From an uncultured Candidatus Saccharibacteria bacterium (lineage in GTDB: Bacteria > Patescibacteriota > Minisyncoccia > UBA6257 > JACRHY01): 50,314 nucleotides of DNA. The notes under the pieces are model-generated. The model saw only the letters and a list, made by a program, of their open reading frames with translations. It made no database searches and was not told the origin of the DNA. This document shows positions 7,902 through 37,532 of this stretch, piece by piece. Position numbers and translations under genes: made by a program. Every line of letters begins with the position of its first letter. The stretch's first letter is position 1. Location of the stretch: positions 1 to 50,314 of the forward strand of contig CAYHUJ010000002.1 of assembly GCA_964360035.1 (NCBI GenBank). The letters are read 5' to 3'.

Positions 7902-7922
7902 CCGATTCAGCCGAAAAGTTAA

Positions 7923-10904
7923 ATGAAATTTACGGCGAATTTGATAAAAAAAACGGGGTTTGTTCTTATTATGGCCATTGTCGTCGGCCTGCTGTTTTCC
8001 GGCGGCCCGTTTTTTTTCCGTATTCCGGCGGCCCGCGCGGCGGTTGCTTTCGTCGGTTGTGGCGCGGCCAGCGCGGTTGGAAGCGGTAATATGACATCAG
8101 TGGGAATCCCTTCCGGAATTCAGAATAACGACATTCTTATCACTTATGTTCATACCAGGGACAACGTGGATTCTTCCATGCCGGCCGACTGGACCAATAA
8201 CGTTGCCGGCAACGGCAATACGACCAATCGGCTGGAAATTTTCTGGAAAAGAACTGCCGGCTCCGAGTCCGCCCCGACCGTTACCCATTCCGGCGGCGAT
8301 TCATCCATTGCAACGATGTGCGCCTTTCGGGAGGTTGACACGGCGGGCAGCCCCTTTAACGCCGTCGGTTCCGTGCAGAGCAATGCCGGCTCTCCCATAA
8401 GCACCGCCGCGATTTCCACGACGGTAAACAACGCGATGATAATTCACGTTTTTGGTTCCAATGACAACAACGCCTGGGGAAGCTACACGGGCATTCCGAC
8501 AAACGAAGCGGCGCAAAACGATAATGCCAGCGGATCGGACGACAGCTCGGGGATGACTTACGGCGCGCAGTCAACGGCGGGTTCCACGGGAACGGCGGGG
8601 GCGTCCCAAACACTTCGCGGTCCCGACGCCGGCGTTTCCGTATTAATGGCATTAAGGCCGTTTGTCGCGGTTACGACTTTAGGCGACGGCAGCGACCCCT
8701 CCAACGCCGCCGTTGCTCCGGGGGCGGCCGCGACCGATTTGGATGCGTTCACTCTACAAACAAACACGGGCGCCGATACGGTTACTGCGGCAACAGTCAC
8801 CTTATCGGCGGGTTCCTCCGGCGGGCTTTCTCTGGTCGCTATCACCAACGACGCCGGCTCCGTCACTTATTGCTCGCAGGCGGATCCGCCTTCCGATTCC
8901 GTTTCCCTTTCTTCCTGCGGAATCCCCGTAACCACCTCTTTAACTCAATTTAAAATCAGAATTACTCCCAAAATTCACGCCGATATGCCGGTTCCCCCGG
9001 GTTCTGATTATTCCGTTACCGGAACAATTACTTCATTTACCAGCACCAATTCCCAGTCGGGCGCTGATGCGGACAGCGCCACGGTAACGATTGACAACGC
9101 CTCGCCGGCAAACGTTACCGGAGCGAGCGGAACCGCCGGCGATTCCCAGGTTTCTTTAAGCTGGACCAATCCCGCGGACTCGGATTTTCACAGCGCGGTT
9201 GTTTTAAGAAGGGCCGGAGCGGCGACAAGCGACGCGCCCGCGGAAGGAGCCGTTTACGTCGTCGGTAACGCGGTCGGCTCGTCGATTGTCGCTTGCGTCG
9301 TCGCGTCGCCGTCAAGCGGCTGCGCCGACACCGGCCTTACCAACGGCACCGAGTATCATTATCGGATTTTTGCGAGGGATAACAACGTTAATTATTCCGA
9401 TACCGGCGCAGTACCGACAGGTTCGCCATTTACGCCCGTCGCAACTCCCGACACCACCCCGCCCGCGGCGGTTACCGACCTTGCGCTTTCAGACGCCTCT
9501 GATTCCGCGATAACGGTTTCCTGGACCGCGCCCGGCGATGACGGCAACACGGGAACGGCGACAAGTTATGATTTGCGGTATTCAACCTCTCTCATCACGG
9601 CCGGAAATTTTGATTCCGCGACGCAGGTAACGGGCGAACCGGCTCCGCAACCCGCGGGCACTTCCCAGTCAAAAGTTGTCTCGGGGCTTTCTCCGAGCAC
9701 GCTGTATTATTTCGCGCTGAAGACCTCCGATGAAGTGCCGAATGTTTCGGCGATGTCAAACGTGCCGAGCGGCACGACTTCCGTTACTCCCGACACCACC
9801 CCGCCCGCGGCGGTTACCGATTTGGCCACCGGAACGGTGACTTCCTCGTCCATAGCCATTTCCTGGACCGCGCCCGGCGATGACGGCAACACGGGAACGG
9901 CGACAAGTTATGATTTGCGGTATTCAACCTCTCTCATCACGGCCGGAAATTTTGATTCCGCGACGCAGGTAACGGGCGAACCGGCTCCGCAACCCGCGGG
10001 CACTTCCCAGTCAAAAGTTGTCTCGGGGCTTTCTCCGAGCACGCTGTATTATTTCGCGCTGAAGACCTCCGATGAAGTGCCGAATGTTTCGGCGATGTCA
10101 AACGTGCCGAGTTTGGCCACCGCGGCCGAAGGAGGCGGAGTGCCGCAGCCGTCCGCCGGCGGCGGAGGGCCGGGGGTCGCGCCGCGCCGCGCCGTTTTTT
10201 CCGGTCAAGCGTATCCTCAAAGCAAAATAGAAATCTTGCGGAAAAGCATGACGGACGAGATTTACGCGCAGGTGCCGTCGGAACATTCCCAAATAAATCC
10301 AGACGGAACGTTTCTGATTTCATTTACCGGCCTTATCGGCGCCGATTATCTCTTTGCTCTTCGCGCGTATGACAAAGATAACCGCAATACCGGCGTATTA
10401 ACGTTTAACGTGTCGCTTTTCGGCGACTTATTTGAAGCGAAAGACATCCTCGTTTCGCCTACGGTCGGTTTGAGCAAATCTTTAATTTCCAAAAACGACG
10501 TTGTTAAATTAAGGGGTTACGCCGGTCCCGGTTTCGTGGTAAAATTAGAAGTAGACGGATTAAAGCGCGAAGACGTCAAGGCGGATTCGTCCGGATTGTG
10601 GAGTTTTGATCTGGGCGTCACTTATCTGACTTACGGCGATCATCGCGTCAGGGCGCGGCAGGTTTCGCCCGACGGGAAAACGGCGAGTAATTTTTCACTT
10701 TCGCGCATTTTCAGAATTTCGCAGATGCCTTCGCTCAAGGCGGATATCAACAACGACGGCATGGTGACAATCGGTGATTGGAGCATTTTTCTTTTCCGAT
10801 GGGGAAGCAAAAACGAGGAATTACGAATGAAAAACGATCTTAATAACGACGGAAAAGTAAATGTATTTGATTTGAGTATTTTTCTTCAAGCAATGAGAAA
10901 ATAA
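7923..10904 (+). CDS. Large secreted/surface protein: N-terminal TM/signal, unknown ~230-aa domain, FN3-like repeats, Ig-like domains, C-terminal dockerin
   Basis: The hydrophobic N-terminus is GFVLIMAIVVGLLFSGGPFFF. Two near-identical FN3-like units follow (ISWTAPGDDGNTGTATSYDLRYS...LSPSTLYYFALKTSDE). The C-terminal pair of Ca-binding dockerin segments is DINNDGMVTIGDWSIF and DLNNDGKVNVFDLSIF, at about 10739-10901. Confidence 0.85.
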   Translation: MKFTANLIKKTGFVLIMAIVVGLLFSGGPFFFRIPAARAAVAFVGCGAASAVGSGNMTSVGIPSGIQNNDILITYVHTRDNVDSSMPADWTNNVAGNGNTTNRLEIFWKRTAGSESAPTVTHSGGDSSIATMCAFREVDTAGSPFNAVGSVQSNAGSPISTAAISTTVNNAMIIHVFGSNDNNAWGSYTGIPTNEAAQNDNASGSDDSSGMTYGAQSTAGSTGTAGASQTLRGPDAGVSVLMALRPFVAVTTLGDGSDPSNAAVAPGAAATDLDAFTLQTNTGADTVTAATVTLSAGSSGGLSLVAITNDAGSVTYCSQADPPSDSVSLSSCGIPVTTSLTQFKIRITPKIHADMPVPPGSDYSVTGTITSFTSTNSQSGADADSATVTIDNASPANVTGASGTAGDSQVSLSWTNPADSDFHSAVVLRRAGAATSDAPAEGAVYVVGNAVGSSIVACVVASPSSGCADTGLTNGTEYHYRIFARDNNVNYSDTGAVPTGSPFTPVATPDTTPPAAVTDLALSDASDSAITVSWTAPGDDGNTGTATSYDLRYSTSLITAGNFDSATQVTGEPAPQPAGTSQSKVVSGLSPSTLYYFALKTSDEVPNVSAMSNVPSGTTSVTPDTTPPAAVTDLATGTVTSSSIAISWTAPGDDGNTGTATSYDLRYSTSLITAGNFDSATQVTGEPAPQPAGTSQSKVVSGLSPSTLYYFALKTSDEVPNVSAMSNVPSLATAAEGGGVPQPSAGGGGPGVAPRRAVFSGQAYPQSKIEILRKSMTDEIYAQVPSEHSQINPDGTFLISFTGLIGADYLFALRAYDKDNRNTGVLTFNVSLFGDLFEAKDILVSPTVGLSKSLISKNDVVKLRGYAGPGFVVKLEVDGLKREDVKADSSGLWSFDLGVTYLTYGDHRVRARQVSPDGKTASNFSLSRIFRISQMPSLKADINNDGMVTIGDWSIFLFRWGSKNEELRMKNDLNNDGKVNVFDLSIFLQAMRK
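9444..10111 (+). repeat. Tandem duplication, period 342 bp (114 codons), inside the dockerin protein gene
   Basis: 9444-9478 matches 9786-9820. 9519-9769 matches 9861-10111, apparently base for base. The ~40 nt between these blocks has diverged. Confidence 0.9.
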
Positions 10905-15895: not shown

Positions 15896-17701
15896 ATGAA
15901 TTCCAAAGAAATTCGCGAATCGTTTATCGCTTTTTTCCGCGAGCGTGGGCACGCCGTCGTTCCGTCTTCCTCGCTTTTACCGGACGATCCGTCGGTGCTT
16001 TTAACGACCGCGGGAATGCAGCAGTTCAAGCGGTATTTCACCGGCGAACTGAACGCGGCGGGCGATTTCGGCTCGCGCCGCGCCGTTTCCGTCCAGAAAT
16101 GCTTCCGAACCTCCGACATTGACGAAGTGGGCGACGAAACGCACCTGACTTTTTTTGAAATGCTCGGCAATTTTTCTTTCGGGCCGGTTGAAAGCGATGA
16201 CCCGCGGGATTTCGGCAGGGGCGGCTATTTCAAACGCGCGGCGATTTTCTGGGCTTATGAATTCACAACCGGCATTTTGGGGATTTCCCCCGAAAGATTG
16301 ACGATTTCCGTTTTTGAAGGCGACCGGGACGTTCCTTTTGACGATGATTCCTACCGGATTTGGAATGAAGAAATAGGAATTCCAAAAAACAGGATGATAT
16401 TGGGAAAGCGCGCGGATAATTTCTGGGGTCCGACGGGAGACGAGGGCCCCTGCGGGCCGACGACGGAAATTTATGTTGCTTCCACCGCCGCCGAGGCTGT
16501 GGCGGGCAAGGGCGTGGAAATCTGGAATCTCGTTTTTAACGAATATTACCGGGAAAAAGACGGCCGGTTGAGAAAGCTCCAAAATCCGGGGGTGGATACC
16601 GGAATGGGACTGGAACGTCTGACCGCCGTAATGGGAGGGGTGGGAAGCGTTTTTGAAACCGACGTTTTCGGGGATTTGCTCGCCAAAATAAACGAACTGG
16701 CGCCGACGCTTGACGACCGCGCCGCCCGCGTTTTCGCCGACCATTTGCGGGCAGCCGCTTTTCTCATCGCCGACGGCGTCCGGCCGTCCAACAAGGAGGC
16801 GGGCTATATTCTGCGCCGTCTCCTGCGCCGTCTGTTCGCTTACCGGATGAAATACGACGTTCACGCCGATCTTTTTCCCGACGCTTTCCGGATTATCAAG
16901 GAATGTTTCGGGGCGTTTTATCCGGAATTGAACGACCTTAAAACGTTGCTGGAAGTCGCCGACGAGGAACAGCGGAAATTCGGCGTCGCCGTCGGCGCCG
17001 GCTTGAAAAAGCTGAAGGATTACGAAAATATTTCCGGGAAAGACGCTTTTTATCTTTACGAGACCTTCGGATTGCCGTTTGAACTGATTAAAGAAATGGC
17101 GCCGAAAGCCGCGGCCGGACTCTTGCGACAGGATTTTGACCGCGAGTTTGAAAAGCATCAGGAAATTTCCCGCGCCGGACTGGAGAAAAAATTCGGCGGC
17201 CACGGGCTGATTTTAAACACCGGGGAGCTTAAAGCCGGAAGCGAAGAAGAGCTCAAGAAAATCGTCCGGCTTCACACCGCCACCCACCTGATGCATCAGG
17301 CATTGCGGGAAACGCTCGGAGAAGAGGTGAAACAGGCCGGCTCCGACATCAACACAGACCGCCTGCGCTTTGACTTTCTTTTCCCCCGCAAGATGACCGA
17401 CGAGGAAAAAAAGAAAGTTGAGGAAATCGTCAACCGGAAAATCGCCGAAGACCTACCGGTCGGATTCTCGGAACTTTCCAAAGAAGAAGCGGAAAAAACC
17501 GGCGCGCTTCATTTTTTCAAAGAGAAATATCCGGACAGGGTGAAAGTTTATTATATCGGTCATTCTTTAAACGATGCTTTCAGCAAGGAATTTTGCGGCG
17601 GCCCTCACGTGAATCACACGCTGGAAGTGGGAAAATTTCGGATAATCAAAGAAGAGGCCGTGGGAGCGGGAATAAGGCGGATTAAAGCAACGGCGGAATA
17701 A
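15896..17701 (+). CDS. alaS: Alanine--tRNA ligase, short form (601 aa) ending after the editing domain
   Basis: The N-terminus is EIRESFIAFFRERGHAVVPSSSLLPDDPSVLLTTAGMQQFK. The editing-site motifs HTATHLMHQAL and CGGPHV are present. The protein ends at GIRRIKATAE with no C-Ala/DHHA1-like domain. Confidence 0.95.
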   Translation: MNSKEIRESFIAFFRERGHAVVPSSSLLPDDPSVLLTTAGMQQFKRYFTGELNAAGDFGSRRAVSVQKCFRTSDIDEVGDETHLTFFEMLGNFSFGPVESDDPRDFGRGGYFKRAAIFWAYEFTTGILGISPERLTISVFEGDRDVPFDDDSYRIWNEEIGIPKNRMILGKRADNFWGPTGDEGPCGPTTEIYVASTAAEAVAGKGVEIWNLVFNEYYREKDGRLRKLQNPGVDTGMGLERLTAVMGGVGSVFETDVFGDLLAKINELAPTLDDRAARVFADHLRAAAFLIADGVRPSNKEAGYILRRLLRRLFAYRMKYDVHADLFPDAFRIIKECFGAFYPELNDLKTLLEVADEEQRKFGVAVGAGLKKLKDYENISGKDAFYLYETFGLPFELIKEMAPKAAAGLLRQDFDREFEKHQEISRAGLEKKFGGHGLILNTGELKAGSEEELKKIVRLHTATHLMHQALRETLGEEVKQAGSDINTDRLRFDFLFPRKMTDEEKKKVEEIVNRKIAEDLPVGFSELSKEEAEKTGALHFFKEKYPDRVKVYYIGHSLNDAFSKEFCGGPHVNHTLEVGKFRIIKEEAVGAGIRRIKATAE

Positions 17702-17715
17702 TTTTTTTTGAAGCT

Positions 17716-18738
17716 ATGGAAAATCGCCGATTTTCTTTGCGGAAAACAGCCGGATTTACTCCTGTTTTGGCCGCGCTGGCCGGCAACGCTTTCGTGACGG
17801 CGATCAAATTCGCGGGGTATTTTTTATCCGGCTCCAGCGCGCTTTTTTCCGAAGCGATCCACAGCTTTGCCGACACGATCAATCAGGTGCTTTTAATGGT
17901 CGGCCTCAAGCGTTCCGTCAAAAAGCCGAGCGATGAATTTGCTTACGGGCACGGGCAGGAGCGGTTTGTTTGGGCGCTTGTCTCCGCCTGCGGCATTTTT
18001 TTTCTCGGCGCGGGAGTGAACATTTATCGCGGGATTTCCGCTTTAAGCGGTCATCGCGAAGTTTTCATCGGAACGGCGATTTTCGCCATTCTCGCCGTTT
18101 CCCTGCTGGTGGAATCAATCACTCTTTTGATCGCCCTGCGGGAGTTAAAGAGGCAAAACGCCGGAAAGGGATGGGCGAATATTTTGAGAGAAGGAGATCC
18201 ATCGTCGCTGGCCGTTTTTTACGAAGACGGGGCGGCGGTATTGGGAGTTTTGACGGCTCTGGCGAGCATTATCCTGACTTCGCTGACGGGAAATTTTTAT
18301 TGGGACGCCGTCGGCTCCATTATTATCGGCCTTCTTTTGGGAATCGTGGCCGTCGTTTTAATAAATAAAAATCGCGCGTTTCTCATTGAAAAGTCGATTC
18401 CCGACGATCTGAAGAAAAAAATCATTGAATTGATGGAGGCCGACCCCGCGATTGAAAAAGTGATTGACTTCAAATCGGCCGTTCTGGACGTCGGCAGTTA
18501 TCGCGTCAAATGCGAAATTGAATTCAACGGCCCGGCGCTGATGAAGGAAATCAAAAAAAGCGGCGCGATCAAAAAAGAATACGCGTTAATCCGGAGCGAT
18601 TACGACGAATTCGTGAAATTCTGCGTAAATTACGCCGATCTCATTCCGCGGCTGATGGGAAAGCGGATTGACGAAATTGAGAAAAAAATCCAAGAAGCCG
18701 TGCCCGGCGTCAGGCATATAGACATAGAAATAAATTAA
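17716..18738 (+). CDS. Cation diffusion facilitator (CDF) family transporter
   Basis: HSFADTINQVLLMVGLKRSVKKPSDEFAYGHGQERF is the CDF TM2-loop signature. Six predicted TM segments are followed by a cytoplasmic C-terminal domain. Confidence 0.9.
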   Translation: MENRRFSLRKTAGFTPVLAALAGNAFVTAIKFAGYFLSGSSALFSEAIHSFADTINQVLLMVGLKRSVKKPSDEFAYGHGQERFVWALVSACGIFFLGAGVNIYRGISALSGHREVFIGTAIFAILAVSLLVESITLLIALRELKRQNAGKGWANILREGDPSSLAVFYEDGAAVLGVLTALASIILTSLTGNFYWDAVGSIIIGLLLGIVAVVLINKNRAFLIEKSIPDDLKKKIIELMEADPAIEKVIDFKSAVLDVGSYRVKCEIEFNGPALMKEIKKSGAIKKEYALIRSDYDEFVKFCVNYADLIPRLMGKRIDEIEKKIQEAVPGVRHIDIEIN

Positions 18739-18752
18739 CCGGCCGTTTAGAT

Positions 18753-18781
18753 TTGACGGACTATTAAAAATTTGGTATAAT
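18753..18781 (+). promoter_or_regulatory. Near-consensus extended -10 sigma70 promoter: TTGACG-17-(TGg)TATAAT
   Basis: The -35 is at 18753-18758, the TG at 18773-18774 and the -10 at 18776-18781. It sits in the 174-nt gap upstream of the 862-aa ORF. Confidence 0.55.
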
Positions 18782-18870
18782 TGCGGAAATTAGAAGAAAG
18801 TCGCGCGATTGCGATCAGCGGGGGCGCCCTTTCCAAGTTTTTATGTTTATGTTATACTGAAAATCATTAA

Positions 18871-18896
18871 GAGGGTGTAAAAAGAGGGTGTAAAAA
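18871..18896 (+). repeat. Tandem 13-mer GAGGGTGTAAAAA x2 in the 5' leader of the 862-aa gene
   Basis: There are two exact adjacent copies (18871-18883 and 18884-18896). They end 16 nt before the ATG at 18913. Confidence 0.85.
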
Positions 18897-18912
18897 TTAA
18901 TTTAAATAAACT

Positions 18913-21501
18913 ATGACGCCGGAAGAATATCAACCTACGCCGGAAGAAATAAAAGCGGCCGAGGCGATGCTCTCAAAGAAGCAGCGCATCGCTTCCGCCC
19001 AAAGAAAGTTAAAATATCAGTACGGAGGAGCGGATAAAAGCAATGATCCGGGAATTGAATCCAATAAAACCGGTACGCCAAAAATTTCCGGCACTATAGG
19101 AGAGCAATTATCGCAACAAGGAATCAATCCCGGGCAGATAAGCGCCGAATCAATAGAGGCAGCGCGAGATCGGGAGTGGCAAAGGCGAGCAGAGTGGGAA
19201 AAAACGCTCAATGAACTCGGAGCGGCTGTAGAAAAAGGCGTTGAACGACACGACGAATGGGCGAAATCAATTTCTTCTCCCGGTGTCGTTGTAAAAATCG
19301 GCAAAGAAAACGCGGAAAGCGACCCGGATCGGCTGAAAATGATCAGGGCGGAAAAAAAGAGAATGGCGGAAATTCACAAGCAAGAAACGGGGCGTTTTCC
19401 GGCTCAACAAGAAATAGAAAGGCGATTGCTGAATGCCATGGAACAGCTTGAGATGAGCAAGGGGATGAAAGGCGAGAAAAGCGCCGAGCGGACGGCTCAT
19501 TATCAAAAAGAGGTCGCGTCTTTAATGATAAAACTTAAAGAAACGGATGAGGCGCGAGAAAGACGCCGGCGGTTTCAGGAAGAAAAAGCAAAAGGAAAAA
19601 AATCAGCGGAAACACAAAAAGGTCAAGCATCATCATTAAATAATGATAACATGTCAAAAGAAGACATATACAAACAAAACGAAGCGGAGCGGATAGCGCG
19701 AGAACAGAGAGAGAGTGAAAGATTTGATAAATTCGCGGAGGCGCGTCCCGAATTCGTCAAGGAGATTGAAATTTTGCGAAAACTCGGCTATGCGCGTATC
19801 AGCGAAAAAGAGGGATCGGAAGAGGCCATGACCAAAAATCTTGAGAATGTTCGCAAGCGGAAAACCGAAGAATTGGTTTCTAAAGAAAGGGAATTGACCA
19901 AAAAATATTTGGCCGAAGAAAGAGCGAAGCTAGACCCCGTTTCCCGATTGGACCTTTTCATCAAAGAAAATCCGAAATACGCCGGGTTGATCGCTAAAAT
20001 GAGAGAAGGGATGGGAAAAAGAAAAGAAATACTCGGTATTCTCCCAAACGGCGAAGAGGCATTTTCAAAATGGCTTGAGGACATTGAAAAAATGAAGCAA
20101 TCTGCGGATCAAGGGCGGGATATTGCCGAAAAAACGGCGGAAGCGGGAACTAAGCGCGCGGAATCAACCGGCGGGACGCCCGAAGAAATCGGCCAAACGC
20201 AAAAGACCGGCGGGCGATACGTTGAAGGCGTTAAAATGGCGGGAGAAGAAGCCGAAAAAGCGACGGTCGGTTTGAATTCTGGTCTTGAAACTCAAAGCAG
20301 GGAAGGTCCTCCGCCCCCTCCTCCCGGGCGCCGCTCGGAAAGAGGAGCGGAAGAGCCGCCTTTGGATTGCTATGATTTCGGCAGTTGTTGCGAGAAGGCC
20401 TCCGATGCCGTCAAGAGATTTGCGAAGAAACTTTACGAAGGAGTCAGGATGAAAACGGTTAACCGCGCGAAAATATGGTTCAATGAAAAAATATACAATT
20501 GGCACGATAAAAAATCCCGCAAATACGTCGGCCAGGTTTCCGCTTTTGACAGGCAAATTACCGGTTTGGAAAATCAGATAAAAGAGCACGAGGAAGGCCT
20601 TTCCAGACGCTTTGCCAACGCTTCCGCCGCTTCGCGCGAACGGATCTTTTCCTCTATTCAAAAAATGCGCCGGGATGTTGAAAAACTGACGGCCGATAAA
20701 GAAAAAGCGCAGTCACGGCTGAATAACAGAGACAATGAAAAAAGACGGTACGAGAACAAACAAAAAGATAACGCCGCCGAAGCGCTCGGCCGCATCGCCG
20801 ACGGGCTTCGTCCTTACGAGTTGAAAATAGCCGCCCGAAAAAAATGCAAAGAGCAATATGACGTGGAGATAAGTTCCCATGCCGCCAGAAAGAAAGAATT
20901 TCAGGCGGAATTGGAGGCCTTGCGGCGGGAAATGGCTGGCGCTCCCAAAGAAGTAAAGAAGGCCATCAAAGAAGAAATCGCTCTTATTCAAGCCGAAATA
21001 AAACGGGCCGAGAAGAACATCAAGAACCGCGTCAAAGCACGGCAGGAAATTGAAAAACAACTGACTAAATTGGAAAGGGGAGCTTCGTATTGGCGGGATG
21101 CGCGCAATGAATTTTCCAGAATCGCCAATAGAGAGAGGGCTTATTACGCCAAAAAAGCGAAAAAGCCGATTGTGGAGGCGGACTTGGCAAGAAAAGAAAT
21201 CTCCGCCGGCGGTGGAGAAGAAGCGGCGCCTGCGGAACGGAAAGAAATCAAAAAAATTCGGCCGTTGAGCGAACGCATTAACGAGTGGAACGACCACTTC
21301 AGAACCGCTTTTCCTCTTAGTGCGGTTGATCTGCGAAGAGCCGGCGTTATTACCGGAGAAAGAGATCTTTTGACCGAGGATTTCGTTTCCATCTTGAACG
21401 ATTATTACGTTTTTTTATCGGGAGAAGGAGAGGGAATTCCCTCCGAACGCGAGCTTGACGACATGATTGCCGCCTTGAGAGGGTGGGAAATGGGACGTTA
21501 A
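18913..21501 (+). CDS. Hypothetical 862-aa highly charged (E/K/R-rich) protein, largely predicted helical, with an internal poly-Pro stretch
   Basis: This is a long uninterrupted ORF. I see no TM segment, signal peptide or recognisable catalytic motif. Notable features are GPPPPPPG followed by LDCYDFGSCCEK. Confidence 0.7.
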   Translation: MTPEEYQPTPEEIKAAEAMLSKKQRIASAQRKLKYQYGGADKSNDPGIESNKTGTPKISGTIGEQLSQQGINPGQISAESIEAARDREWQRRAEWEKTLNELGAAVEKGVERHDEWAKSISSPGVVVKIGKENAESDPDRLKMIRAEKKRMAEIHKQETGRFPAQQEIERRLLNAMEQLEMSKGMKGEKSAERTAHYQKEVASLMIKLKETDEARERRRRFQEEKAKGKKSAETQKGQASSLNNDNMSKEDIYKQNEAERIAREQRESERFDKFAEARPEFVKEIEILRKLGYARISEKEGSEEAMTKNLENVRKRKTEELVSKERELTKKYLAEERAKLDPVSRLDLFIKENPKYAGLIAKMREGMGKRKEILGILPNGEEAFSKWLEDIEKMKQSADQGRDIAEKTAEAGTKRAESTGGTPEEIGQTQKTGGRYVEGVKMAGEEAEKATVGLNSGLETQSREGPPPPPPGRRSERGAEEPPLDCYDFGSCCEKASDAVKRFAKKLYEGVRMKTVNRAKIWFNEKIYNWHDKKSRKYVGQVSAFDRQITGLENQIKEHEEGLSRRFANASAASRERIFSSIQKMRRDVEKLTADKEKAQSRLNNRDNEKRRYENKQKDNAAEALGRIADGLRPYELKIAARKKCKEQYDVEISSHAARKKEFQAELEALRREMAGAPKEVKKAIKEEIALIQAEIKRAEKNIKNRVKARQEIEKQLTKLERGASYWRDARNEFSRIANRERAYYAKKAKKPIVEADLARKEISAGGGEEAAPAERKEIKKIRPLSERINEWNDHFRTAFPLSAVDLRRAGVITGERDLLTEDFVSILNDYYVFLSGEGEGIPSERELDDMIAALRGWEMGR

Positions 21502-21524
21502 AATTAAAATAAAAAAATAAAATT

Positions 21525-21773
21525 ATGGATACCAACAATAATCAAGCTCAAACAAGCGCGTTGGCTAGGGCGAAACGGCTTGCCGCCGCCGCCAAAAAAG
21601 TGAACGACGACTTTGAGCGGAGAACCGATGAGTTGGCTAAGCAAGCCAAGCGGAACGCGGATGAGCTGGAAAAGCTGGAGGCGAATCTTCAACAAACGGA
21701 GATTGACGCCATTAATAAAATGGACGCGGAGCTTATAAGGTTTCTGTCATCGGACGAAGAAGATCAAAAATAA
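21525..21773 (+). CDS. Small (82 aa) coiled-coil hypothetical protein
   Basis: The ORF starts 23 nt after the previous stop. It shares the motif AAAKK(V/I)xDDFxR(R/K)T(D/E)xL with the next small ORF. Confidence 0.6.
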   Translation: MDTNNNQAQTSALARAKRLAAAAKKVNDDFERRTDELAKQAKRNADELEKLEANLQQTEIDAINKMDAELIRFLSSDEEDQK

Positions 21774-21778
21774 CGCCA

Positions 21779-21946
21779 ATGGACGAAAAGGAATTATCGG
21801 CGGCGGCCAAAAAAATCTTTGACGATTTTACCAGAAAAACGGAAGCGCTTCGCCGCGAGTACGAGGAAGCGATTAAAAAGATTCTGAAAGAAATTGAAGA
21901 AAGAAAAATAAGAGAGCTTAAAGAAAGATTAAGAAATTTGCCGTAA
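21779..21946 (+). CDS. Small (55 aa) coiled-coil hypothetical protein, paralog of the preceding gene (below the ORF-track cutoff)
   Basis: The stretch from ATG 21779 to TAA 21944-21946 reads MDEKELSAAAKKIFDDFTRKTEALRREYEEAIKKILKEIEERKIRELKERLRNLP. It starts 5 nt after the previous stop. Confidence 0.5.
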   Translation: MDEKELSAAAKKIFDDFTRKTEALRREYEEAIKKILKEIEERKIRELKERLRNLP

Positions 21947-21968
21947 ACCCGTCTTATTTTCTGCGGAC

Positions 21969-21997
21969 TTGCTCTGCGGATGAACGCCATTTATAAT
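21969..21997 (+). promoter_or_regulatory. Sigma70-like promoter TTGCTC-17-TATAAT, 7 nt before the GTG at 22005
   Basis: The -35 is at 21969-21974 and a perfect -10 at 21992-21997. An in-frame stop at 21999-22001 makes GTG 22005 the first possible start. Confidence 0.4.
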
Positions 21998-22004
21998 GTA
22001 AGCG

Positions 22005-23201
22005 GTGAACCGCTTAAAGAAAATTTCCCGTTTCGTCAACTCTTTTTTTATCAAAGACGAGGATTTTTTGGTCGTTGAAATTTTCAGCGACTGCTCCAAA
22101 GCGACGGTTTTAAGGGCCGATTTCGCCGAAAAATCCGTCCGCGTTTTAAAATGCCGATTATTTGAAAATAAAGAAAAAGGCCATCTCGGCGCTTTGAAAA
22201 AAATCGCCAAGAACTTCGGCGGATACAAAACGATTCTCGCGCTTGATTCCGATTTCGCTCATACCGTCAATTCGTCCATAGGCATCATTCGCGACAATCC
22301 CAAAGAAACGATAACCGAAAGCGATCTGGACAACATCCTGTTTCAGGCGCTTTGGCGGTTCTTTGACCGTTACCGCGCGACGGCGGCGGGACGCCTCGGC
22401 GTCGGCGACGTTGACGTCGTGTTAAGCGACATAAGAGTCGGCGAGATAAAATTGGACGGCCACAAAGTCATCAATCCGGTCGGTTTTAAAGCGAAGAGCG
22501 CGGAAATTTATTTAAGCGAAACGTTTATTTCCAGGAAACTGTTTGATTTTTTGAAAGTTAATTTCTTCGGCGAGAAAAACGCCTTGCTCCGGATAACGGA
22601 AGCGGGAAGCGCCTGGGCGCATCTTCTGGCCGGAAAATCCGAAAAGGACGGCGGCGCCGTCGCTCTTTTGGCCGCCGACCGCACCGCTCTATTTTCTTCC
22701 GCCGCCGGCCGCGCTTTTTACCTTGACGAATTTAAGTGGGGCGGAGAAAATCTGCGTTCCGCCTTCTCCAACTATCTCAAAATTCCCGCCGAAGCGGCGG
22801 AGGCGGCCATCGGGCGGTATGTCGCGCGCGACGCCTCGGAGAAATTCCTCCGTTATTTTCAGAAAATATTTCTGGAAGAGTTTGAAACGTTTTTGAAGGG
22901 ACTAAAGTCCGCTTTTTCTTCGGCGAAAATAGCCGCGCCCGAAATTATCCATCTTGGCAGTTTTTATGAATTGCCGGCCGTCGTTTTTGACAGGAAATTC
23001 GGCTTTAAAATCGCGCCCCTTTTGCCGGAGGCGATTTCGGAAAAATTCGGATTTCGTGTTAAAATAAACAAACCGGCGGAAGCGGATTTTGAAAGGCGGG
23101 CCTTTTCCACTCTCGCGGTTTTTTTGGAAGCGCATTTTAACGGCAAAGAGGGAAATTTAAACCGCTTGATAAGTCGCCGGGCGAAATGGCTGACCGGTTA
23201 A
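22005..23201 (+). CDS. Hypothetical protein with weak resemblance to FtsA/PilM-type actin-fold proteins (nucleotide motifs degenerate)
   Basis: FLVVEIFSDCSKATVLRA sits where FtsA/PilM have (L)DIGSxxxK(xV). ITESDLDNILFQALWRF resembles the FtsA 1C/2A junction. No clean DxGxGxT phosphate-2 motif is present. This is pattern recognition only. Confidence 0.6.
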   Translation: MNRLKKISRFVNSFFIKDEDFLVVEIFSDCSKATVLRADFAEKSVRVLKCRLFENKEKGHLGALKKIAKNFGGYKTILALDSDFAHTVNSSIGIIRDNPKETITESDLDNILFQALWRFFDRYRATAAGRLGVGDVDVVLSDIRVGEIKLDGHKVINPVGFKAKSAEIYLSETFISRKLFDFLKVNFFGEKNALLRITEAGSAWAHLLAGKSEKDGGAVALLAADRTALFSSAAGRAFYLDEFKWGGENLRSAFSNYLKIPAEAAEAAIGRYVARDASEKFLRYFQKIFLEEFETFLKGLKSAFSSAKIAAPEIIHLGSFYELPAVVFDRKFGFKIAPLLPEAISEKFGFRVKINKPAEADFERRAFSTLAVFLEAHFNGKEGNLNRLISRRAKWLTG

Positions 23202-23228
23202 TCTTGCCCGCCAAATCGTTTAAAGATT

Positions 23229-24932
23229 ATGAAAACAAAAATGCAAAAAATAAACATCGGGCCTTCCGACAGCACGGCGAAAGTGGCCGAGGAGATTATT
23301 TCTTCCGTCGCGGAGGAAATCGTTTTACGCATCCCAAAATTTTCCAGGTTGAGGGAAGCGGCGGATAATTTTGAGCTTTTAAAAAGAGAAGCTGAAGCCG
23401 CCGGCAAGAAAATCTTCATTGAATCGGTTGACGATGACGTGCTGGAGATGGCGGAAAAAAGCGGCATTGAAGGGCAAAATCCCGTGTTGAAATTCGGAGG
23501 CGGCAAAAGGCGACTTTCCGACATAACGCCTTCCGTTTATTCAACCCGTCCGGCCGACCGGCCGCCGAAGGAAGCGAAAGAGGAAAAAGAGCCGGAAGAA
23601 GAGCGGGAAAAGGACCGCGAAGAGCAGCCGGCGATCCTTCATCTGCGCGTTGAGAAAAAAGAGCAGCCGCCCGTTTCCGAAGTTTTTTCCGCCGGCGAAA
23701 AACAGCAATTTAAACGGGAGGAAAAAATTCCCATTCGCGTAAAAGAAGCCGCGCCGGAAACGATTCCGGCCAAAAGGCGCCTGCCGGAAATCCTCGGGAA
23801 GAAAAATTTTTTCTATTTTGCCGGAGCGGCGGTCATTTTACTTGCGGCGATCGGCTATCTCGCCTTGGCCGTTTTGCCCCGCGCCGGCGTTTCCGTGGCT
23901 TTAAAAAAAGCCGGCTGGTCTTATGATGGAATCGTTACGGTTGACAAAAACGCGGCCGTGGCGGATTTGAGCGAAATGAAAATTCCGGGAGAAGTATTCG
24001 TTCTTTCCAAGAACACGCAAATGTCCTTTCCGGCTTCGTTGAAAAAAAGCGGCGAACAGAAGGCCAGGGGGAAAATAAGGATATTCAACGCCTACGGCCC
24101 CGCTTCGCAGACGCTGGTGGCGACGACCCGCTTTGAGACGCCGGACGGCAAAATTTTCCGCATTGACGAAAAAACCGTCGTGCCGGCCGCCAAAACCGCG
24201 AACGGAAAAATAGTTCCGTCAAGCGTGGAAGCGGCGATAACGGCGGACAAGCCGGGAACGGAGTACAACGTCGGGCCGGTGGAAAAGCTGACCATACCCG
24301 GATTCAAAGGAACTCCAAAATACGACGGTTTTTACGGGGCGATGGAGGAACCGGCGAGCGGTGGCTTTGCCGGCGAAACCGCAGTGCCGAGCGAGCAGGA
24401 CCTTTCTGACGCGAAGAGTAAAATAGCGCAGGTTCTTCAAGACAGCTTAAACGCGGAGCTTATCGGTCAGGCGCCGGAGGGATTTAAAACGGTTGACGGC
24501 GCCTCGGTTTTTAAAATTATCAAGGAAAACGTCGTTATCGGGAACGGTCAGGGGGAAAATTTCAGCGTTTTTGCCGAAGGAGAATCGGCAACCATCGTTT
24601 TTTCCGAACAAACGCTTCAAGACCTGCTTGTTTCCAAAGGACGGGAAGAATCCGGCGACGGCTTTCTTAATCCGAAAAATATTGAATTAAGCTATACCCC
24701 CGCGTCTGCGGATTTTTCCGCCGGTACGATGTCTTTACCGGTAAAATTCGGCGTTTCTCTTGAAAGCGGCTTGGACCAGGAAGCGCTCAAGACCATAATT
24801 GCCGGTAAAAATAAAAGCGAATTAGAGGGATTGTCTTTTCCGGGAATTGAAAAAATAACCGTTTCTTTCTGGCCTTTTTGGGTCCGGACGATTCCCGCCG
24901 ATGTTTCCCGCATTAAGGTGAGCGCGGAGTAA
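23229..24932 (+). CDS. Hypothetical bitopic membrane protein: ~90-aa cytoplasmic domain, charged linker, one TM helix, ~350-aa beta-rich exodomain
   Basis: The TM helix is FFYFAGAAVILLAAIGYLALAVL at about aa 195-217. The exodomain segment GKIRIFNAYGPASQTLVATTRFETPDGKIFRIDEKTVVPAAK...ADKPGTEYNVGP loosely recalls baseplate-J/gp47-like repeats. That resemblance is unverified. Confidence 0.7.
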   Translation: MKTKMQKINIGPSDSTAKVAEEIISSVAEEIVLRIPKFSRLREAADNFELLKREAEAAGKKIFIESVDDDVLEMAEKSGIEGQNPVLKFGGGKRRLSDITPSVYSTRPADRPPKEAKEEKEPEEEREKDREEQPAILHLRVEKKEQPPVSEVFSAGEKQQFKREEKIPIRVKEAAPETIPAKRRLPEILGKKNFFYFAGAAVILLAAIGYLALAVLPRAGVSVALKKAGWSYDGIVTVDKNAAVADLSEMKIPGEVFVLSKNTQMSFPASLKKSGEQKARGKIRIFNAYGPASQTLVATTRFETPDGKIFRIDEKTVVPAAKTANGKIVPSSVEAAITADKPGTEYNVGPVEKLTIPGFKGTPKYDGFYGAMEEPASGGFAGETAVPSEQDLSDAKSKIAQVLQDSLNAELIGQAPEGFKTVDGASVFKIIKENVVIGNGQGENFSVFAEGESATIVFSEQTLQDLLVSKGREESGDGFLNPKNIELSYTPASADFSAGTMSLPVKFGVSLESGLDQEALKTIIAGKNKSELEGLSFPGIEKITVSFWPFWVRTIPADVSRIKVSAE

Positions 24933-24937
24933 CGCTC

Positions 24938-24967
24938 TTGACTTGCTCGGATTATCCATGATAACAT
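24938..24967 (+). promoter_or_regulatory. Candidate promoter for the infA-alpha operon: TTGACT-18-TAACAT (TG at -15/-14)
   Basis: The -35 is at 24938-24943 and the -10 at 24962-24967, preceded by TGa. The infA ATG is at 24978. Confidence 0.35.
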
Positions 24968-24977
24968 TTCAAATCGC

Positions 24978-25199
24978 ATGAGCGACGATCGACAATTAAC
25001 GAAGAAAACTGACGGTGTCGTTGAAGAGGCGTTACCCGGCTTAACTTTTAAGGTGCGGCTTGGCGACGGGAAAGAAGTTCTGGCTCATCTTGCCGGAAAG
25101 ATGAGAATTAATTACATTAAAATTCTTCCGGGGGATCGGGTAACCGTTGAATTAAGCCAGTACGACGATCGCCGCGGAAGAATCGTCAGAAGATTGTAG
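24978..25199 (+). CDS. infA: Translation initiation factor IF-1
   Basis: [60 protein letters not shown] is the S1-like IF-1 fold signature. Confidence 0.95.
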
Positions 25200-25244
25200 T
25201 ATTTTTTTTCCGGCGGCAGCTTATTTTTTATTTGTTTAAAATTT

Positions 25245-25361
25245 ATGAAAGTCAGGGCTTCGGTAAGTAAAATCTGCAAAAATTGTAAAACCGTCCGCAG
25301 AAAGGGAAGGGTTTACGTTGTTTGCAAGAAAAACGTTAAGCACAAACAAAGGCAGGGCTAA
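25245..25361 (+). CDS. rpmJ: 50S ribosomal protein L36 (38 aa, below the ORF-track cutoff)
   Basis: Manual translation gives [38 protein letters not shown] followed by TAA at 25359-25361. This is the canonical L36 zinc-ribbon sequence in its canonical position between infA and rpsM. Confidence 0.9.
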
Positions 25362-25370
25362 TTCAATCCT

Positions 25371-25754
25371 ATGAGATTACTGGGTATAAACATTCCGGAC
25401 GGAAAAAGGGCGGAAATCGCCCTGACTTACATTTACGGAATCGGCCGTTCCACCGCGACTGATATTTTGACGTCTTTAAAAATTAATCCTGGCAAAAAAG
25501 CCAAGGATTTAAGTTCCGAAGAGGCCAATAAAATCAAGGATTTCATAGAAAAAAATTATAAAATAGAAGGGGAAATGCGCCAGCTCGTGAAACAGCATAT
25601 AGGACGATTAAAGGACATAAGATGCTATCGCGGCCTTCGCCACCTAAAGCGGCTTCCGGCGCGCGGCCAAAGGACGAAGACCAATTCCCGAACCGTTCGC
25701 GGAAACGTCCGAAAAACGGCCGGTAGCGGAAAAAGAAAGGTTGAATTGAAGTAA
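25371..25754 (+). CDS. rpsM: 30S ribosomal protein S13
   Basis: The sequence contains INIPDGKRAEIALTYIYGIGRSTA...YRGLRHLKRLPARGQRTKTNSRT. Confidence 0.95.
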   Translation: MRLLGINIPDGKRAEIALTYIYGIGRSTATDILTSLKINPGKKAKDLSSEEANKIKDFIEKNYKIEGEMRQLVKQHIGRLKDIRCYRGLRHLKRLPARGQRTKTNSRTVRGNVRKTAGSGKRKVELK

Positions 25755-30404: not shown

Positions 30405-31424
30405 ATGTTCACCAGCAAAATAGGAATAGATTTAGGAACGACCAATACCATCGTTTTCGTTCCCGGGCAGGGATTCATCATCAACGAACCGACGATCGTC
30501 GCTTTAAGCGCGCCGGACAATTCCGTTTTAGCCATCGGCAAGGAAGCGAAAGAAATGATCGGTCGGACTCCGGACGATATTACCGCTTATCGTCCGCTCA
30601 AAGACGGCGTCATCGCCGATTATTACATTACCAAGGCGATGCTCCAGTATTTCATCGCGAAAGCCGCCGGCCGTTTCAATATTTTTAAACCCGACGTGGT
30701 GATTTCCGTTCCCGCCGGCATCACCTCCACGGAAAGGCGGGCGGTTATCAACGCGGCCCGCGAAGCCGGAGCGCGCGAGGCCTATATCGTCAAGGAACCG
30801 ATTTTGGCCGCTTTGGGAGCCGGCATTCCCGTCAATTCGCCTTCCGGAAACATGATTATCAACATCGGCGGGGGAACTTCGGAGGTCGCGGTTATTTCGC
30901 TTGGCGGCATTGTTACTTGGGCCAGTTTGCGCGTTGCCGGAAATAAATTTGACCAGGCCATCATTGACATGGTCAAGAAAAAACACGCGCTGGCGATTGG
31001 CGAGCAGATGGCGGAAACGATGAAAATTGAAATCGGCGCCGCTCTTCCGGCGCGCTCCAAAACGGAGTTCCGCGTGCGCGGCCGCGACCTTGCCTCCGGT
31101 TTGCCCAAAGACGTCGTTATTACCGCCAACGAAGTCGTTGACGCTTTGCGCGACCACCTGATGGACATCGCCGCTTCTGTTCAGGGAGTTTTCAACGAAA
31201 CGCCTCCCGAATTGGCCGCCGACATTATGGAGAAAGGAATTATTCTTTCCGGAGGAGGCGCCAATCTTCGCTACGTTGACGAGTTTTTCAAAAGGGTTTT
31301 GGGAGTGGCGGCTTACGTCGCCGAAGATCCTCTTTTTTGCGTAGCCAAAGGTAGCGGCGCCATTTTAAACCATCTTGATATTTACAAGCGGACGCTGCTG
31401 AATAAAACGTCGGGAAACAGATAG
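30405..31424 (+). CDS. mreB: Rod shape-determining protein MreB (copy 1)
   Basis: The sequence contains IGIDLGTTNTIVFV...INEPTIVAL...IINIGGGTSEVAVISLGGIV...ILSGGGANL. Confidence 0.95.
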   Translation: MFTSKIGIDLGTTNTIVFVPGQGFIINEPTIVALSAPDNSVLAIGKEAKEMIGRTPDDITAYRPLKDGVIADYYITKAMLQYFIAKAAGRFNIFKPDVVISVPAGITSTERRAVINAAREAGAREAYIVKEPILAALGAGIPVNSPSGNMIINIGGGTSEVAVISLGGIVTWASLRVAGNKFDQAIIDMVKKKHALAIGEQMAETMKIEIGAALPARSKTEFRVRGRDLASGLPKDVVITANEVVDALRDHLMDIAASVQGVFNETPPELAADIMEKGIILSGGGANLRYVDEFFKRVLGVAAYVAEDPLFCVAKGSGAILNHLDIYKRTLLNKTSGNR

Positions 31425-36485: not shown

Positions 36486-37532
36486 ATGAAACTTCCGTTA
36501 ACTTTTTTCACGAAAGACATCGGGCTTGATTTAGGAACGGCGAATTCGCTGGTTTACGTCAGGAACCGCGGCATCGTGATAAACGAGCCGTCAATAGTGT
36601 CGCTCAACAACAGAACCGGCCAGATTTTAGCCGTCGGCGGCGAAGCGAAGAAAATGCTGAGCCGCACTCCCGCTCACATCACCGCCATCCGGCCGCTGAT
36701 AAACGGCGTCATTTCCGATTTTGACATCACCCAGGAAATGATCCGTCATTTTCTGAAAAAAGCCGGAGCAACCTCTCCGTTCAGCTACTCGCGCGTCGTC
36801 ATCGGCGTTCCGAGCAATCTGACCGAGGTGGAAAGGAAATCCGTTGAAGACGCCGCCGTCGGCGCCGGCGCGGCCAAAACGTATCTGATTGAACAGCCGC
36901 TTGCCGCCGCCGTCGGAGCGCGCCTGCCGATAGAAGAACCGACCGCCAATCTGATAATAGACATCGGCGGCGGAACGACCGATATCGCCATTATTTCAAT
37001 GGGGGGAATCGTTACCGCCAAAAGTTTGAAAATCGCGGGCGATAGATTTAATGAAGACATCATCAGATATATCCGCGACGAATTCAAGCTGATTATCGGC
37101 GAACCGACGGCCGAGGAACTGAAAATTACCATCGGTTCCGCCGTTCCTCTTGAAGAAAAACTGGACATTGCGGCGCGAGGACGCGACGCCTCAACGGGAC
37201 TGCCGAGAGAAATCACGGTTAAAAACACGCAAATCAGGGTGGCGCTGGAGAGGTCGCTGCAGACGATCGTCGCGGCGCTTAAGGAAGTGATTGAGGTGTC
37301 TCCGCCGGAACTGGTCGGCGACATCCTTAAAAGAGGAATATATCTCTGCGGCGGCGGAAGCCTGCTGCGCGGCATTGATCAGCTTATTGAAAAGGAAACC
37401 GGCATTAATACGACGATAATTGACGATCCGTTGACCTGCGTTGTCCGCGGAACGGGGATAATCATTGAAGATATTGAAAAGTACGAGCAGGTTTTGGCCA
37501 ATGTTCTGGCGCCGAGAAAAATAAATTTATAA
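36486..37532 (+). CDS. mreB: Rod shape-determining protein MreB (copy 2)
   Basis: The sequence contains IGLDLGTANSLVYV...INEPSIVSL...IIDIGGGTTDIAIISMGGIV...YLCGGGSLL. It is roughly half identical to copy 1 by eye. Confidence 0.9.
   Translation: MKLPLTFFTKDIGLDLGTANSLVYVRNRGIVINEPSIVSLNNRTGQILAVGGEAKKMLSRTPAHITAIRPLINGVISDFDITQEMIRHFLKKAGATSPFSYSRVVIGVPSNLTEVERKSVEDAAVGAGAAKTYLIEQPLAAAVGARLPIEEPTANLIIDIGGGTTDIAIISMGGIVTAKSLKIAGDRFNEDIIRYIRDEFKLIIGEPTAEELKITIGSAVPLEEKLDIAARGRDASTGLPREITVKNTQIRVALERSLQTIVAALKEVIEVSPPELVGDILKRGIYLCGGGSLLRGIDQLIEKETGINTTIIDDPLTCVVRGTGIIIEDIEKYEQVLANVLAPRKINL

Follow-up and report, generated by a model that had tools for sequence, protein, structure and literature searches.

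We analyzed a run of five co-directional genes in a 50,314-nt stretch of DNA from an uncultured bacterium (hereafter, the window; contig CAYHUJ010000002.1 of assembly GCA_964360035.1) and found that the conserved unit within it is not the five-gene cluster but a two-gene module at its 3′ end (22005–24932, + strand). The first gene of this pair encodes a 398-aa actin-fold protein, the second a 567-aa membrane protein; we refer to the two families as FAM398 and FAM567. We propose that they form a membrane-spanning scaffold-and-adaptor module with its own promoter, in which an FtsA-derived FAM398 protein is paired with a bitopic FAM567 protein, and we put the probability of this reading at about 0.55.

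Synteny and promoter-like element of the gene pair

The five open reading frames (ORFs) lie on the + strand and encode proteins of 862 aa (18913–21501), 82 aa (21525–21773), 55 aa (21779–21946), 398 aa (22005–23201, with a GTG start), and 567 aa (23229–24932, with a likely true ATG start at 23241). Their coordinates, and the gaps of 23, 5, 58, and 27 nt that separate them in this order, reproduce those of a preliminary description made from the sequence alone. Upstream are dnaG, rpoD, alaS, and a cation-efflux (CDF) transporter gene; downstream are infA, rpsM, rpsK, rpsD, and rpoA. The window belongs to a groundwater bacterium of the Parcubacteria group (Patescibacteria). All five genes are under purifying selection in comparison with the closest relative, a groundwater Parcubacteria metagenome-assembled genome (MAG; locus L004), with ratios of nonsynonymous to synonymous substitution (dN/dS) of 0.14–0.23, including 0.23 for the 862-aa and 0.19 for the 82-aa gene; for the 55-aa gene the proportions of nonsynonymous and synonymous differences (pN and pS) were 0.16 and 0.91. 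Because nonsynonymous changes were far fewer than synonymous changes, we consider the five ORFs to be genuine genes. As the preliminary description had held, none could be placed with confidence in a known family: no curated model in Pfam, NCBIfam, PHROGs, or PADLOC matched any of the five proteins at threshold, and the sub-threshold signals in these libraries were confined to PF21110, phrog_6, and an SMC coiled-coil match.

To define the conserved unit, we searched the ORFs of 54 related loci, drawn from species-representative genomes and public assemblies, with profiles of FAM398 (alignment A1) and FAM567 (alignment A2). FAM398 was followed by FAM567 in 47 of the 54 loci, or 47 of the 49 in which the DNA runs on past FAM398; among the seven loci with no FAM567 next door, five are contig ends and two (L042 and L044) truly have no adjacent FAM567 gene. 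In L044, a Wolfebacteria MAG, an IMPDH-like gene lies downstream of FAM398, and in L042, which carries a generic label, an opposite-strand ORF. The two genes of the pair are separated by a median of 33 nt, several pairs overlap by 4 nt, and infA–rpsM–rpsK came next after the pair in nearly every locus with a long enough contig. The arrangement was kept at down to 25% identity and around distant FAM567 members. The top 150 representatives, none longer than 481 aa, include no FAM398–FAM567 fusion. In the window, the invariant 3′ neighbor, infA with its promoter-like site, occupies 24938–25199 (+ strand). The fixed place of the pair in the dnaG–rpoD–alaS ... infA–rpsM–rpsK–rpsD–rpoA block, together with its spread through the Parcubacteria/Paceibacteria, points to a core role connected with the envelope or with division. 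Many of the MAG records that carry the pair (L008, L010, L012, L013, and others) are titled "uncultured Candidatus Saccharibacteria bacterium"; this title seems generic, as gene order and sequence similarity match Parcubacteria loci.

The three genes upstream of the pair occupy a variable slot. Among 42 loci the distance from alaS to FAM398 ranged from 0 to 6.2 kb, with the two genes directly adjacent in 15, and the slot in other genomes contains a malic enzyme, histidine kinase, exonuclease, or beta-propeller protein. The genes for the 862-, 82-, and 55-aa proteins were absent from every pair-carrying locus checked (L001–L003 and L005–L055) except L004. Even there the slot differs, since the window's CDF transporter gene (17716–18738) is not in the 86%-identical L004 (L004:184–3348 compared with window 17702–22004). 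Identity between the window and L004 was 49%, 57%, and 72% for the 862-, 82-, and 55-aa proteins, compared with 86% for FAM398, 77% for FAM567, and 90–94% for infA and the ribosomal proteins, the three upstream genes evolving 3–4 times faster. A search of 5.8 billion proteins returned a single homolog of the 862-aa protein, at 43% identity. Because these genes are restricted to L004, diverged, and set in a slot of changing content, we regard them as occupants of that slot. They are fast-evolving, lineage-specific genes of coiled-coil type that lie outside the conserved module, and their sole tie to it is adjacency in two close genomes. The single five-gene apparatus envisaged in the preliminary description is thus not borne out: the pair is syntenic in many genomes, and the other three genes essentially are not.

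The pair also carries a promoter-like element of its own, TTGCTC-17-TATAAT (21969–21997, + strand), immediately upstream of FAM398. Between the end of its TATAAT box (21992–21997) and the GTG codon the distance is 7 nt, and the box is kept in L004 (CATTTATAAT), where the remaining spacer has diverged with a 70-nt indel. With at most one mismatch allowed, a −10 box was present 3–8 nt upstream of an in-frame FAM398 start codon in 42 of 49 loci; this codon is GTG in 36 of these 42, and the box is TG-extended in 30. For FAM567, which served as the control gene, such a box preceded the start in 5 of 46 loci. This layout suggests that the FAM398 mRNA is leaderless or near-leaderless. Given the conserved −10 box, the pair is apparently a bicistronic unit that is independent of the upstream genes. 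The strong upstream promoter and the infA promoter that had been reported to bracket the five genes both correspond to sites on the + strand, which are consensus matches only: TTGACG-17-TATAAT with an upstream TG (18753–18781; the best site in 17600–25500, matching at 11 of 12 positions), located 5′ of the 862-aa gene, and a weaker sigma-70-like site, TTGACT-18-TAACAT (24938–24967), located 5′ of infA. The former probably serves the lineage-specific genes and not necessarily the conserved pair. Counts of terminator-like sites did not exceed the shuffled expectation.

Structure of the FAM398 and FAM567 proteins

At 50% identity, FAM398 forms 997 clusters with E ≤ 1e-3 (274 with E ≤ 1e-30); wherever its members are named, they are hypothetical proteins from Parcubacteria. 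The window protein and 12 relatives matched no curated model even at E ≤ 1, including the FtsA models of Pfam (PF14450/SHS2_FTSA) and NCBIfam (ftsA), and neither single-protein nor profile searches of Protein Data Bank (PDB) sequences returned an FtsA or PilM entry. An AlphaFold2 model built from the alignment was confident (predicted local distance difference test score, pLDDT, 82.6; predicted template modeling score, pTM, 0.79). The top 29 Foldseek matches to this model were FtsA (from five species) and PilM, with E values of 1.8e-17 to 3e-11 and template modeling (TM) scores of 0.47–0.67. The best FtsA match was 4a2a (E 1.8e-17; TM-scores for FtsA, 0.55–0.62), and the best PilM match was the PilM:PilN structure 5eou (E 1.9e-15), which had the highest TM-score, 0.67. 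Weaker matches included EpsL/GspL (E ~1e-8 to 1e-7), EutJ, and DnaK and MreB (E ~1e-6).

Conservation within the family is highest in an SHS2/subdomain-1C-like insert, of the kind by which the FtsA/PilM branch is defined, at approximately residues 75–176 (22227–22532, + strand), modeled as strands at 75–80 and 85–95, a helix at 105–131, and strands at 136–150, 153–155, and 165–176. Fourteen positions of the protein are invariant in a 13-sequence alignment (D107, D109, N110, Q114, W117, D121, R124, D151, G152, H153, N157, P158, G160, and F161), and W117, R124, D151, P158, and G160 are each conserved in at least 85% of 137 members. By information content, conservation peaks at 1C residues 101–160 and in the last six residues of the protein. 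When compared with Escherichia coli FtsA by hhalign, the 13-sequence profile gave an insignificant match (probability 0.9%), and a usable signal was obtained with 137 sequences only: residues 99–272 of that profile aligned with FtsA residues 100–261 at 70% probability (E 4.2e-5), placing the FAM398 NPxGF motif against NPVGL in 1C of FtsA. The same profile gave 0.5% probability against E. coli HofM (PilM) and 0.3% against the window's own MreB proteins. Because the profile signal is to FtsA only, with HofM and MreB below 1%, FAM398 is best described as a remote FtsA homolog.

FAM398 has lost the ATP-binding motifs of the actin fold. In the phosphate-1 region (residues 23–36, VVEIFSDCSKATVL), E25 is conserved in 72% of the 137 members, but the glycine of the D-x-G motif is missing; in phosphate-2, D-x-G-G-G-T is missing and T227 alone is conserved (75%); and the adenosine G-G (residues 318–319) is missing as well. 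The model, the Foldseek matches, and these column statistics uphold the suggestion, made from the letters of the window protein, of an FtsA/PilM-type fold with degenerate nucleotide-binding motifs. In a subfamily of short members with 297–321 aa (L047:291–1250, L048:2380–3273, and L049:6965–7930), the first ~75 residues, which form strands beta1–3 of subdomain 1A, are missing, and the 1C domain, the C-terminal KRRIKWL tail, and the partner gene are kept; in L047 and L049 the short FAM398 gene overlaps its partner by 4 nt. FAM398 is probably a degenerate FtsA-like pseudo-ATPase of the actin fold that works independently of ATP, as far as its motifs can tell.

The C-terminal tail of FAM398 (residues 384–396, NLNRLISRRAKWL; 23154–23192, + strand) is amphipathic and basic and is a candidate membrane-targeting helix. 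Its consensus, LAKRRxRWL, is well conserved among the 137 members (R391 83%, R392 75%, R394 78%, W395 97%, and L396 81%), and its hydrophobic moment of 0.56–0.62 brackets that of the E. coli FtsA tail (GSWIKRLNSWLRKEF; 0.57). We infer that the tail binds the membrane. Neither ftsZ, ftsQ, nor any other dcw gene lies beside FAM398 in ~50 loci, and no ftsA or ftsZ was found on the contig extended past both ends of the window. Surveys of the Candidate Phyla Radiation (CPR) describe a Pfam-recognizable FtsA gene that adjoins ftsZ (PMC9871819), and annotated ftsA transcripts have been reported in Patescibacteria MAGs (PMC9938205). Since canonical ftsA is thus reported in CPR/Patescibacteria, FAM398 is probably an additional FtsA paralog.

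FAM567 has at least 874 homologs, all of them hypothetical proteins, and all named sources are Patescibacteria. The sequence MQKINIGPSD, which the preliminary description took as the N-terminus, has its start at the 567-aa ORF's second ATG (23241); because homologs open with MKKIxINK, position 23241 is suggested as the true start. The model (pLDDT 79.8) divides into four parts, residues 1–88, 90–190, and 191–215 and an ectodomain. The first is a cytoplasmic alpha/beta domain (23229–23492, + strand; pLDDT > 90) with the order beta-alpha-beta-alpha-beta-alpha-beta, whose fold matches were weak only (Rossmann-like or B12-binding-like); conservation of this head is ~3 bits per column, equal to that of the ectodomain. 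Just past it lies the linear motif RRLSDITP (23508–23531, + strand), a candidate docking peptide in a region of low pLDDT. Its family consensus is R-Q-F-S-D-I-V-P, with D98 and I99 at 97% and S97 at 85%, and we infer that the R-x-x-S-D-I-x-P motif acts as the docking peptide. The linker that follows (residues 102–190) is disordered and rich in E, K, S, R, and P, with pLDDT < 50 over residues 90–190; among 119 members it varies in sequence as well as in length (31–98 aa). In L045 (L045:8138–9538), the whole folded N-domain is missing, and a short tail retaining KVADIVARP gives a layout like that of PilN or FtsN.

A single transmembrane helix (F194–L216; 23808–23876, + strand; Kyte–Doolittle KD19 maximum 2.47; helix 191–215 in the model) follows the linker, and no transmembrane segment was found in the other four proteins of the cluster. 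The N-terminus is assigned to the cytoplasm because the N-side flank of the helix has a net charge of +4 and the C-side flank +1, and FAM567 is thus a bitopic, N-in/C-out (type II) membrane protein. The conserved N-terminus, the single helix, and the large outer domain accord with the preliminary description; its "short" cytoplasmic part does not, as that part has ~190 residues, comprising the folded 88-aa domain and the disordered linker.

The ectodomain (residues 219–567; 23883–24929, + strand) is beta-rich and baseplate-J-like, with a central barrel at residues 278–371 (24060–24341, + strand). The GlxA beta-barrel model PF21110 matched 28 of 30 FAM567 members (best E 2.6e-7), the window protein being sub-threshold, and phrog_6, a baseplate wedge subunit, matched the window protein with E 3.6e-5. 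When the model was searched against the PDB with Foldseek, it matched GlxA (5lxz, E 3e-6) and baseplate wedge proteins from the phages Pa193, Mu, and XM1 (E 1e-5 to 1e-4); in BFVD, baseplate wedge or baseplate J-like proteins made up most of the top 25 matches, with TM-scores of 0.15–0.26. Because these TM-scores are low, the barrel-centered similarity alone is secure. No baseplate entry was returned by single-protein or profile searches of PDB sequences, and Baseplate J (PF04865) was not matched among the 30 members at E ≤ 0.1. No tail or baseplate genes lie near FAM567 at the examined loci, and FAM567 has no relatives among IMG/VR viral contigs.

Proposed function and alternative explanations

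The pair resembles several known systems in which an actin-like protein meets a bitopic partner, and is identical to none of them. FAM398 shares with FtsA and PilM the fold, and with FtsA also the NPxG motif in 1C and the C-terminal amphipathic basic helix; as in FtsA, the SHS2/1C insert stands in place of actin subdomain 1B, and 1C is the most conserved surface. In FtsA, 1C binds the cytoplasmic tails of bitopic proteins, and FAM567 is likewise a single-pass, N-in protein. Unlike FtsA, however, FAM398 is without ATP-binding motifs, lies outside dcw, and is undetected by the FtsA models of Pfam and NCBIfam. By its curated-model results, ATP motifs, dcw context, and ftsZ neighborhood it is not a member of the FtsA family, and by curated model and type IV pilus (T4P) context it is not a PilM. 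It also differs from MreB, which is a true ATPase without 1C.

Comparison of FAM567 with known partners gives a similar picture. Whereas FtsN and FtsQ carry SPOR or POTRA domains, FAM567 has an ectodomain that is baseplate-J-like and, on the cytoplasmic side, a folded domain of 88 aa. Unlike the genes of FtsA partners, the FAM567 gene is 3′ of and tightly linked to that of the actin-like protein. The gene order is shared with PilM–PilN and the fused GspL/EpsL, where an FtsA-like fold is accompanied by an adjacent bitopic gene with the actin-like gene first, and where the cytoplasmic N-terminus of PilN binds its actin-like protein, PilM. PilN, though, has a short INLLP peptide and a periplasmic coiled coil with a ferredoxin-like domain, whereas FAM567 has its 88-aa N-domain and ~100 disordered residues; what it shares with a PilN-type partner is only the single-transmembrane, N-in topology, and the motif of the short tail in L045 differs. 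The pil genes, moreover, stand in pilMNOPQ/T4P clusters, of which there are none here, and there is no sequence-profile signal to PilM. The likeness to PilM–PilN or FtsA–partner pairs drawn in the preliminary description therefore stands for the bitopic N-in topology and fails for a PilN-like short peptide, as residues 5–9 form a strand of the folded domain in most members. RodZ is nearest to FAM567 in architecture, with a folded cytoplasmic N-domain, a disordered linker, a transmembrane helix, and a beta-rich outer domain, but its head is a helix-turn-helix and that of FAM567 is alpha/beta. In the central barrel and flanking beta-rich domains FAM567 is like baseplate J/gp47, T4 gp6, and type VI secretion system TssF wedge proteins and the GlxA barrel (PF21110), with a weak likeness in sequence (phrog_6, PF21110); it differs from baseplate proteins in being membrane-anchored, extracytoplasmic, and without tail genes, and the global TM-scores are low. 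FAM567 is not a PilN, FtsN, FtsQ, RodZ, or phage baseplate J protein. We found no description of either family in the literature on the pair, on baseplate J in Patescibacteria, or on FtsA-like CPR families; both may belong to the unannotated, CPR-enriched, membrane-associated families of Meheust et al. (PMC6744442).

We propose that FAM398, whose ATP-binding motifs are lost but whose actin fold and SHS2/1C domain for protein interaction are retained, would act as a nucleotide-independent peripheral-membrane scaffold that is held at the membrane by its C-terminal amphipathic basic helix and may oligomerize there. The cytoplasmic head of FAM567, comprising the 88-aa domain and the R-x-x-S-D-I-x-P motif, would dock onto FAM398, probably on 1C, and the flexible linker and transmembrane helix would join this contact to the baseplate-wedge-like ectodomain at the cell surface. 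In this way the pair would connect an assembly outside the cell with a scaffold in the cytoplasm, following the logic of FtsA–FtsN/FtsQ, PilM–PilN/GspL, and MreB–RodZ. A bolder version, which we regard as speculative and rather unlikely, is that the pair belongs to an unrecognized core envelope-spanning machine of Parcubacteria: the ATP-independent FtsA paralog would cluster or polymerize on the inner side of the membrane and organize FAM567 into surface rings or arrays via the cytoplasmic head. The resulting structure could serve at the division site or in cell contact (episymbiosis), perhaps together with the divergent second FtsZ that is reportedly found in CPR.

Several points weigh against our proposal. 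The kinship of FAM398 with FtsA is based on a predicted structure together with a profile match of 70% probability, no curated model detecting it, and the baseplate-J likeness of FAM567 may reflect the shared barrel only. The tail of FAM398 could pack on the protein itself or bind a partner instead of the membrane. Forty-seven FAM398–FAM567 pairs are too few for coupling analysis, and adjacency in a long housekeeping block can last without a functional link. In L042 (4866–6113) and L044 (6992–8257), the FAM398 gene has neither partner nor infA downstream, and many loci carry generic labels for their taxonomy.

FAM398 might instead be the lineage's own, highly diverged FtsA ortholog, tethering FtsZ to the membrane, with FAM567 a lineage-specific late-divisome partner like FtsN or FtsQ/DivIB that is recruited via 1C. 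The best fold matches and the sole sequence-level signal, including the NPxG of 1C, are to FtsA, the amphipathic tail is like the FtsA membrane anchor, and a class-wide module in housekeeping surroundings would suit a division protein. Against this, no ftsZ or dcw gene adjoins the pair, the ATP motifs are lost and subdomain 1A is partly missing in one subfamily, and canonical FtsA (PMC9871819) and ftsA transcripts (PMC9938205) in CPR make a paralog likelier, so that we consider the ortholog improbable, if not negligibly so. That the two genes are functionally unrelated neighbors, frozen by accident in the block, is a still weaker prospect: the whole dnaG–rpoD–alaS ... infA–rpsM–rpsK block is conserved, and L042 and L044 have no partner next door, but the alaS–FAM398 slot is highly variable and the FAM398–FAM567 junction is not, the gaps are short or overlapping with a promoter-like box on the first gene only, and an actin-like protein with a bitopic partner has several precedents.

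We also think it very unlikely that the pair serves a type IV filament or secretion machine as a PilM–PilN-like alignment subcomplex, even though PilM is among the top fold matches with the best TM-score (5eou), the downstream gene is bitopic like pilN, and the L045 protein opens, as PilN does, with a brief tail that carries a conserved motif. PilM is an ATP-binding protein that lacks a tail for membrane targeting. None of the examined loci has pilus or secretion genes nearby, FAM398 has no PilM_2 (PF11104) match and next to no profile signal to HofM, and the FAM567 ectodomain is not like PilN or PilO; in CPR, PilM is a separately recognized family that co-localizes with T4P genes (PMC6744442). 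Marginally less credible again is one lineage-specific cytoskeletal or envelope-spanning apparatus of all five genes with the coiled-coil proteins as filament or spacer parts. It would fit the shared direction, tight spacing, and lack of a convincing terminator between the genes, the identical five-gene order in L004, and a coiled-coil-rich composition compatible with cytoskeletal proteins; it does not fit the absence of the three faster-evolving genes from the other loci with the pair, the lone database homolog of the 862-aa protein, the slot that differs even between the window and L004, or the separate −10 box of FAM398. Finally, the baseplate J-like and wedge matches might suggest that FAM567 derives from the baseplate of a prophage, tailocin, or contractile injection system and survives as a remnant, the pair being of mobile origin. 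We reject a phage origin, which the absence of viral-contig relatives and the synteny largely refute: no further tail or baseplate genes are nearby and the chromosomal place is fixed across the class, the protein is membrane-anchored with its domain outside, no repeats flank the pair, and PF04865 is unmatched, leaving mobile origin scarcely tenable.

Other features of the window and implications

The 862-aa protein upstream of the pair is an orphan with no Pfam match, mostly coiled-coil-like, with K, R, D, and E making up 38.6% of its residues. Its match to the SMC model TIGR02168 scored 20.9 bits (cutoff 567) and covered only coiled-coil residues 533–782; an SMC identity was rejected, as the match takes in the coiled-coil part alone and not the full length with an ABC ATPase head and hinge. 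The 82- and 55-aa proteins are charged helical mini-proteins and tandem paralogs (blastp E 5e-7) with the common motif AAAKK(V/I)xDDFxR(R/K)T, and a repeat is visible in their DNA (21585–21614 and 21800–21829, 73% identity). In the leader of the 862-aa gene, a 13-mer (GAGGGTGTAAAAA) is duplicated exactly in tandem (18871–18896), 3′ of a second promoter-like site, TTTCCA-17-TATACT (18830–18858). Transfer RNA and Rfam scans of the window found no RNA genes, and a repeat scan of 18700–25000 found no mobile-element boundaries.

Elsewhere in the window are two full-length MreB paralogs, 5 kb from each other (30405–31424 and 36486–37532; Pfam E 5e-127 and 2e-131); a PBP2-type transpeptidase gene (37564–39483) follows the second. 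In a 770-aa protein (5589–7901), a receiver domain at the N-terminus precedes a long stretch without assignment, and the gene for this protein shows extreme strand skew over 6001–8000 (AT skew ~0.5, GC skew ~0.28). The next protein, of 993 aa (7923–10904), has fibronectin type III and dockerin domains; the region of its gene has a G+C content of 0.58–0.60, compared with ~0.50 elsewhere, and a reversed GC skew. At the left end of the window is a gene for a BRO-N domain protein (166–1008), with a matching arrangement on a second Hainich groundwater contig. Phages and mobile elements often carry the BRO-N domain.

Few bacteria are as abundant, or as poorly understood, as the Parcubacteria/Paceibacteria, and to our knowledge almost nothing is known of envelope building, division, or host attachment in these ultra-small cells. 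A class-wide module in the genome's most conserved housekeeping block, combining a degenerate FtsA with a surface protein whose fold is phage-baseplate-like, is a concrete and tractable candidate for a lineage-specific cell-biological machine. A relative of FtsA that is naturally free of ATP motifs, and in some members lacks part of subdomain 1A, helps to ask which functions of FtsA need nucleotide, and the conserved layout of a −10 box followed by GTG suggests leaderless GTG initiation in CPR across a class.

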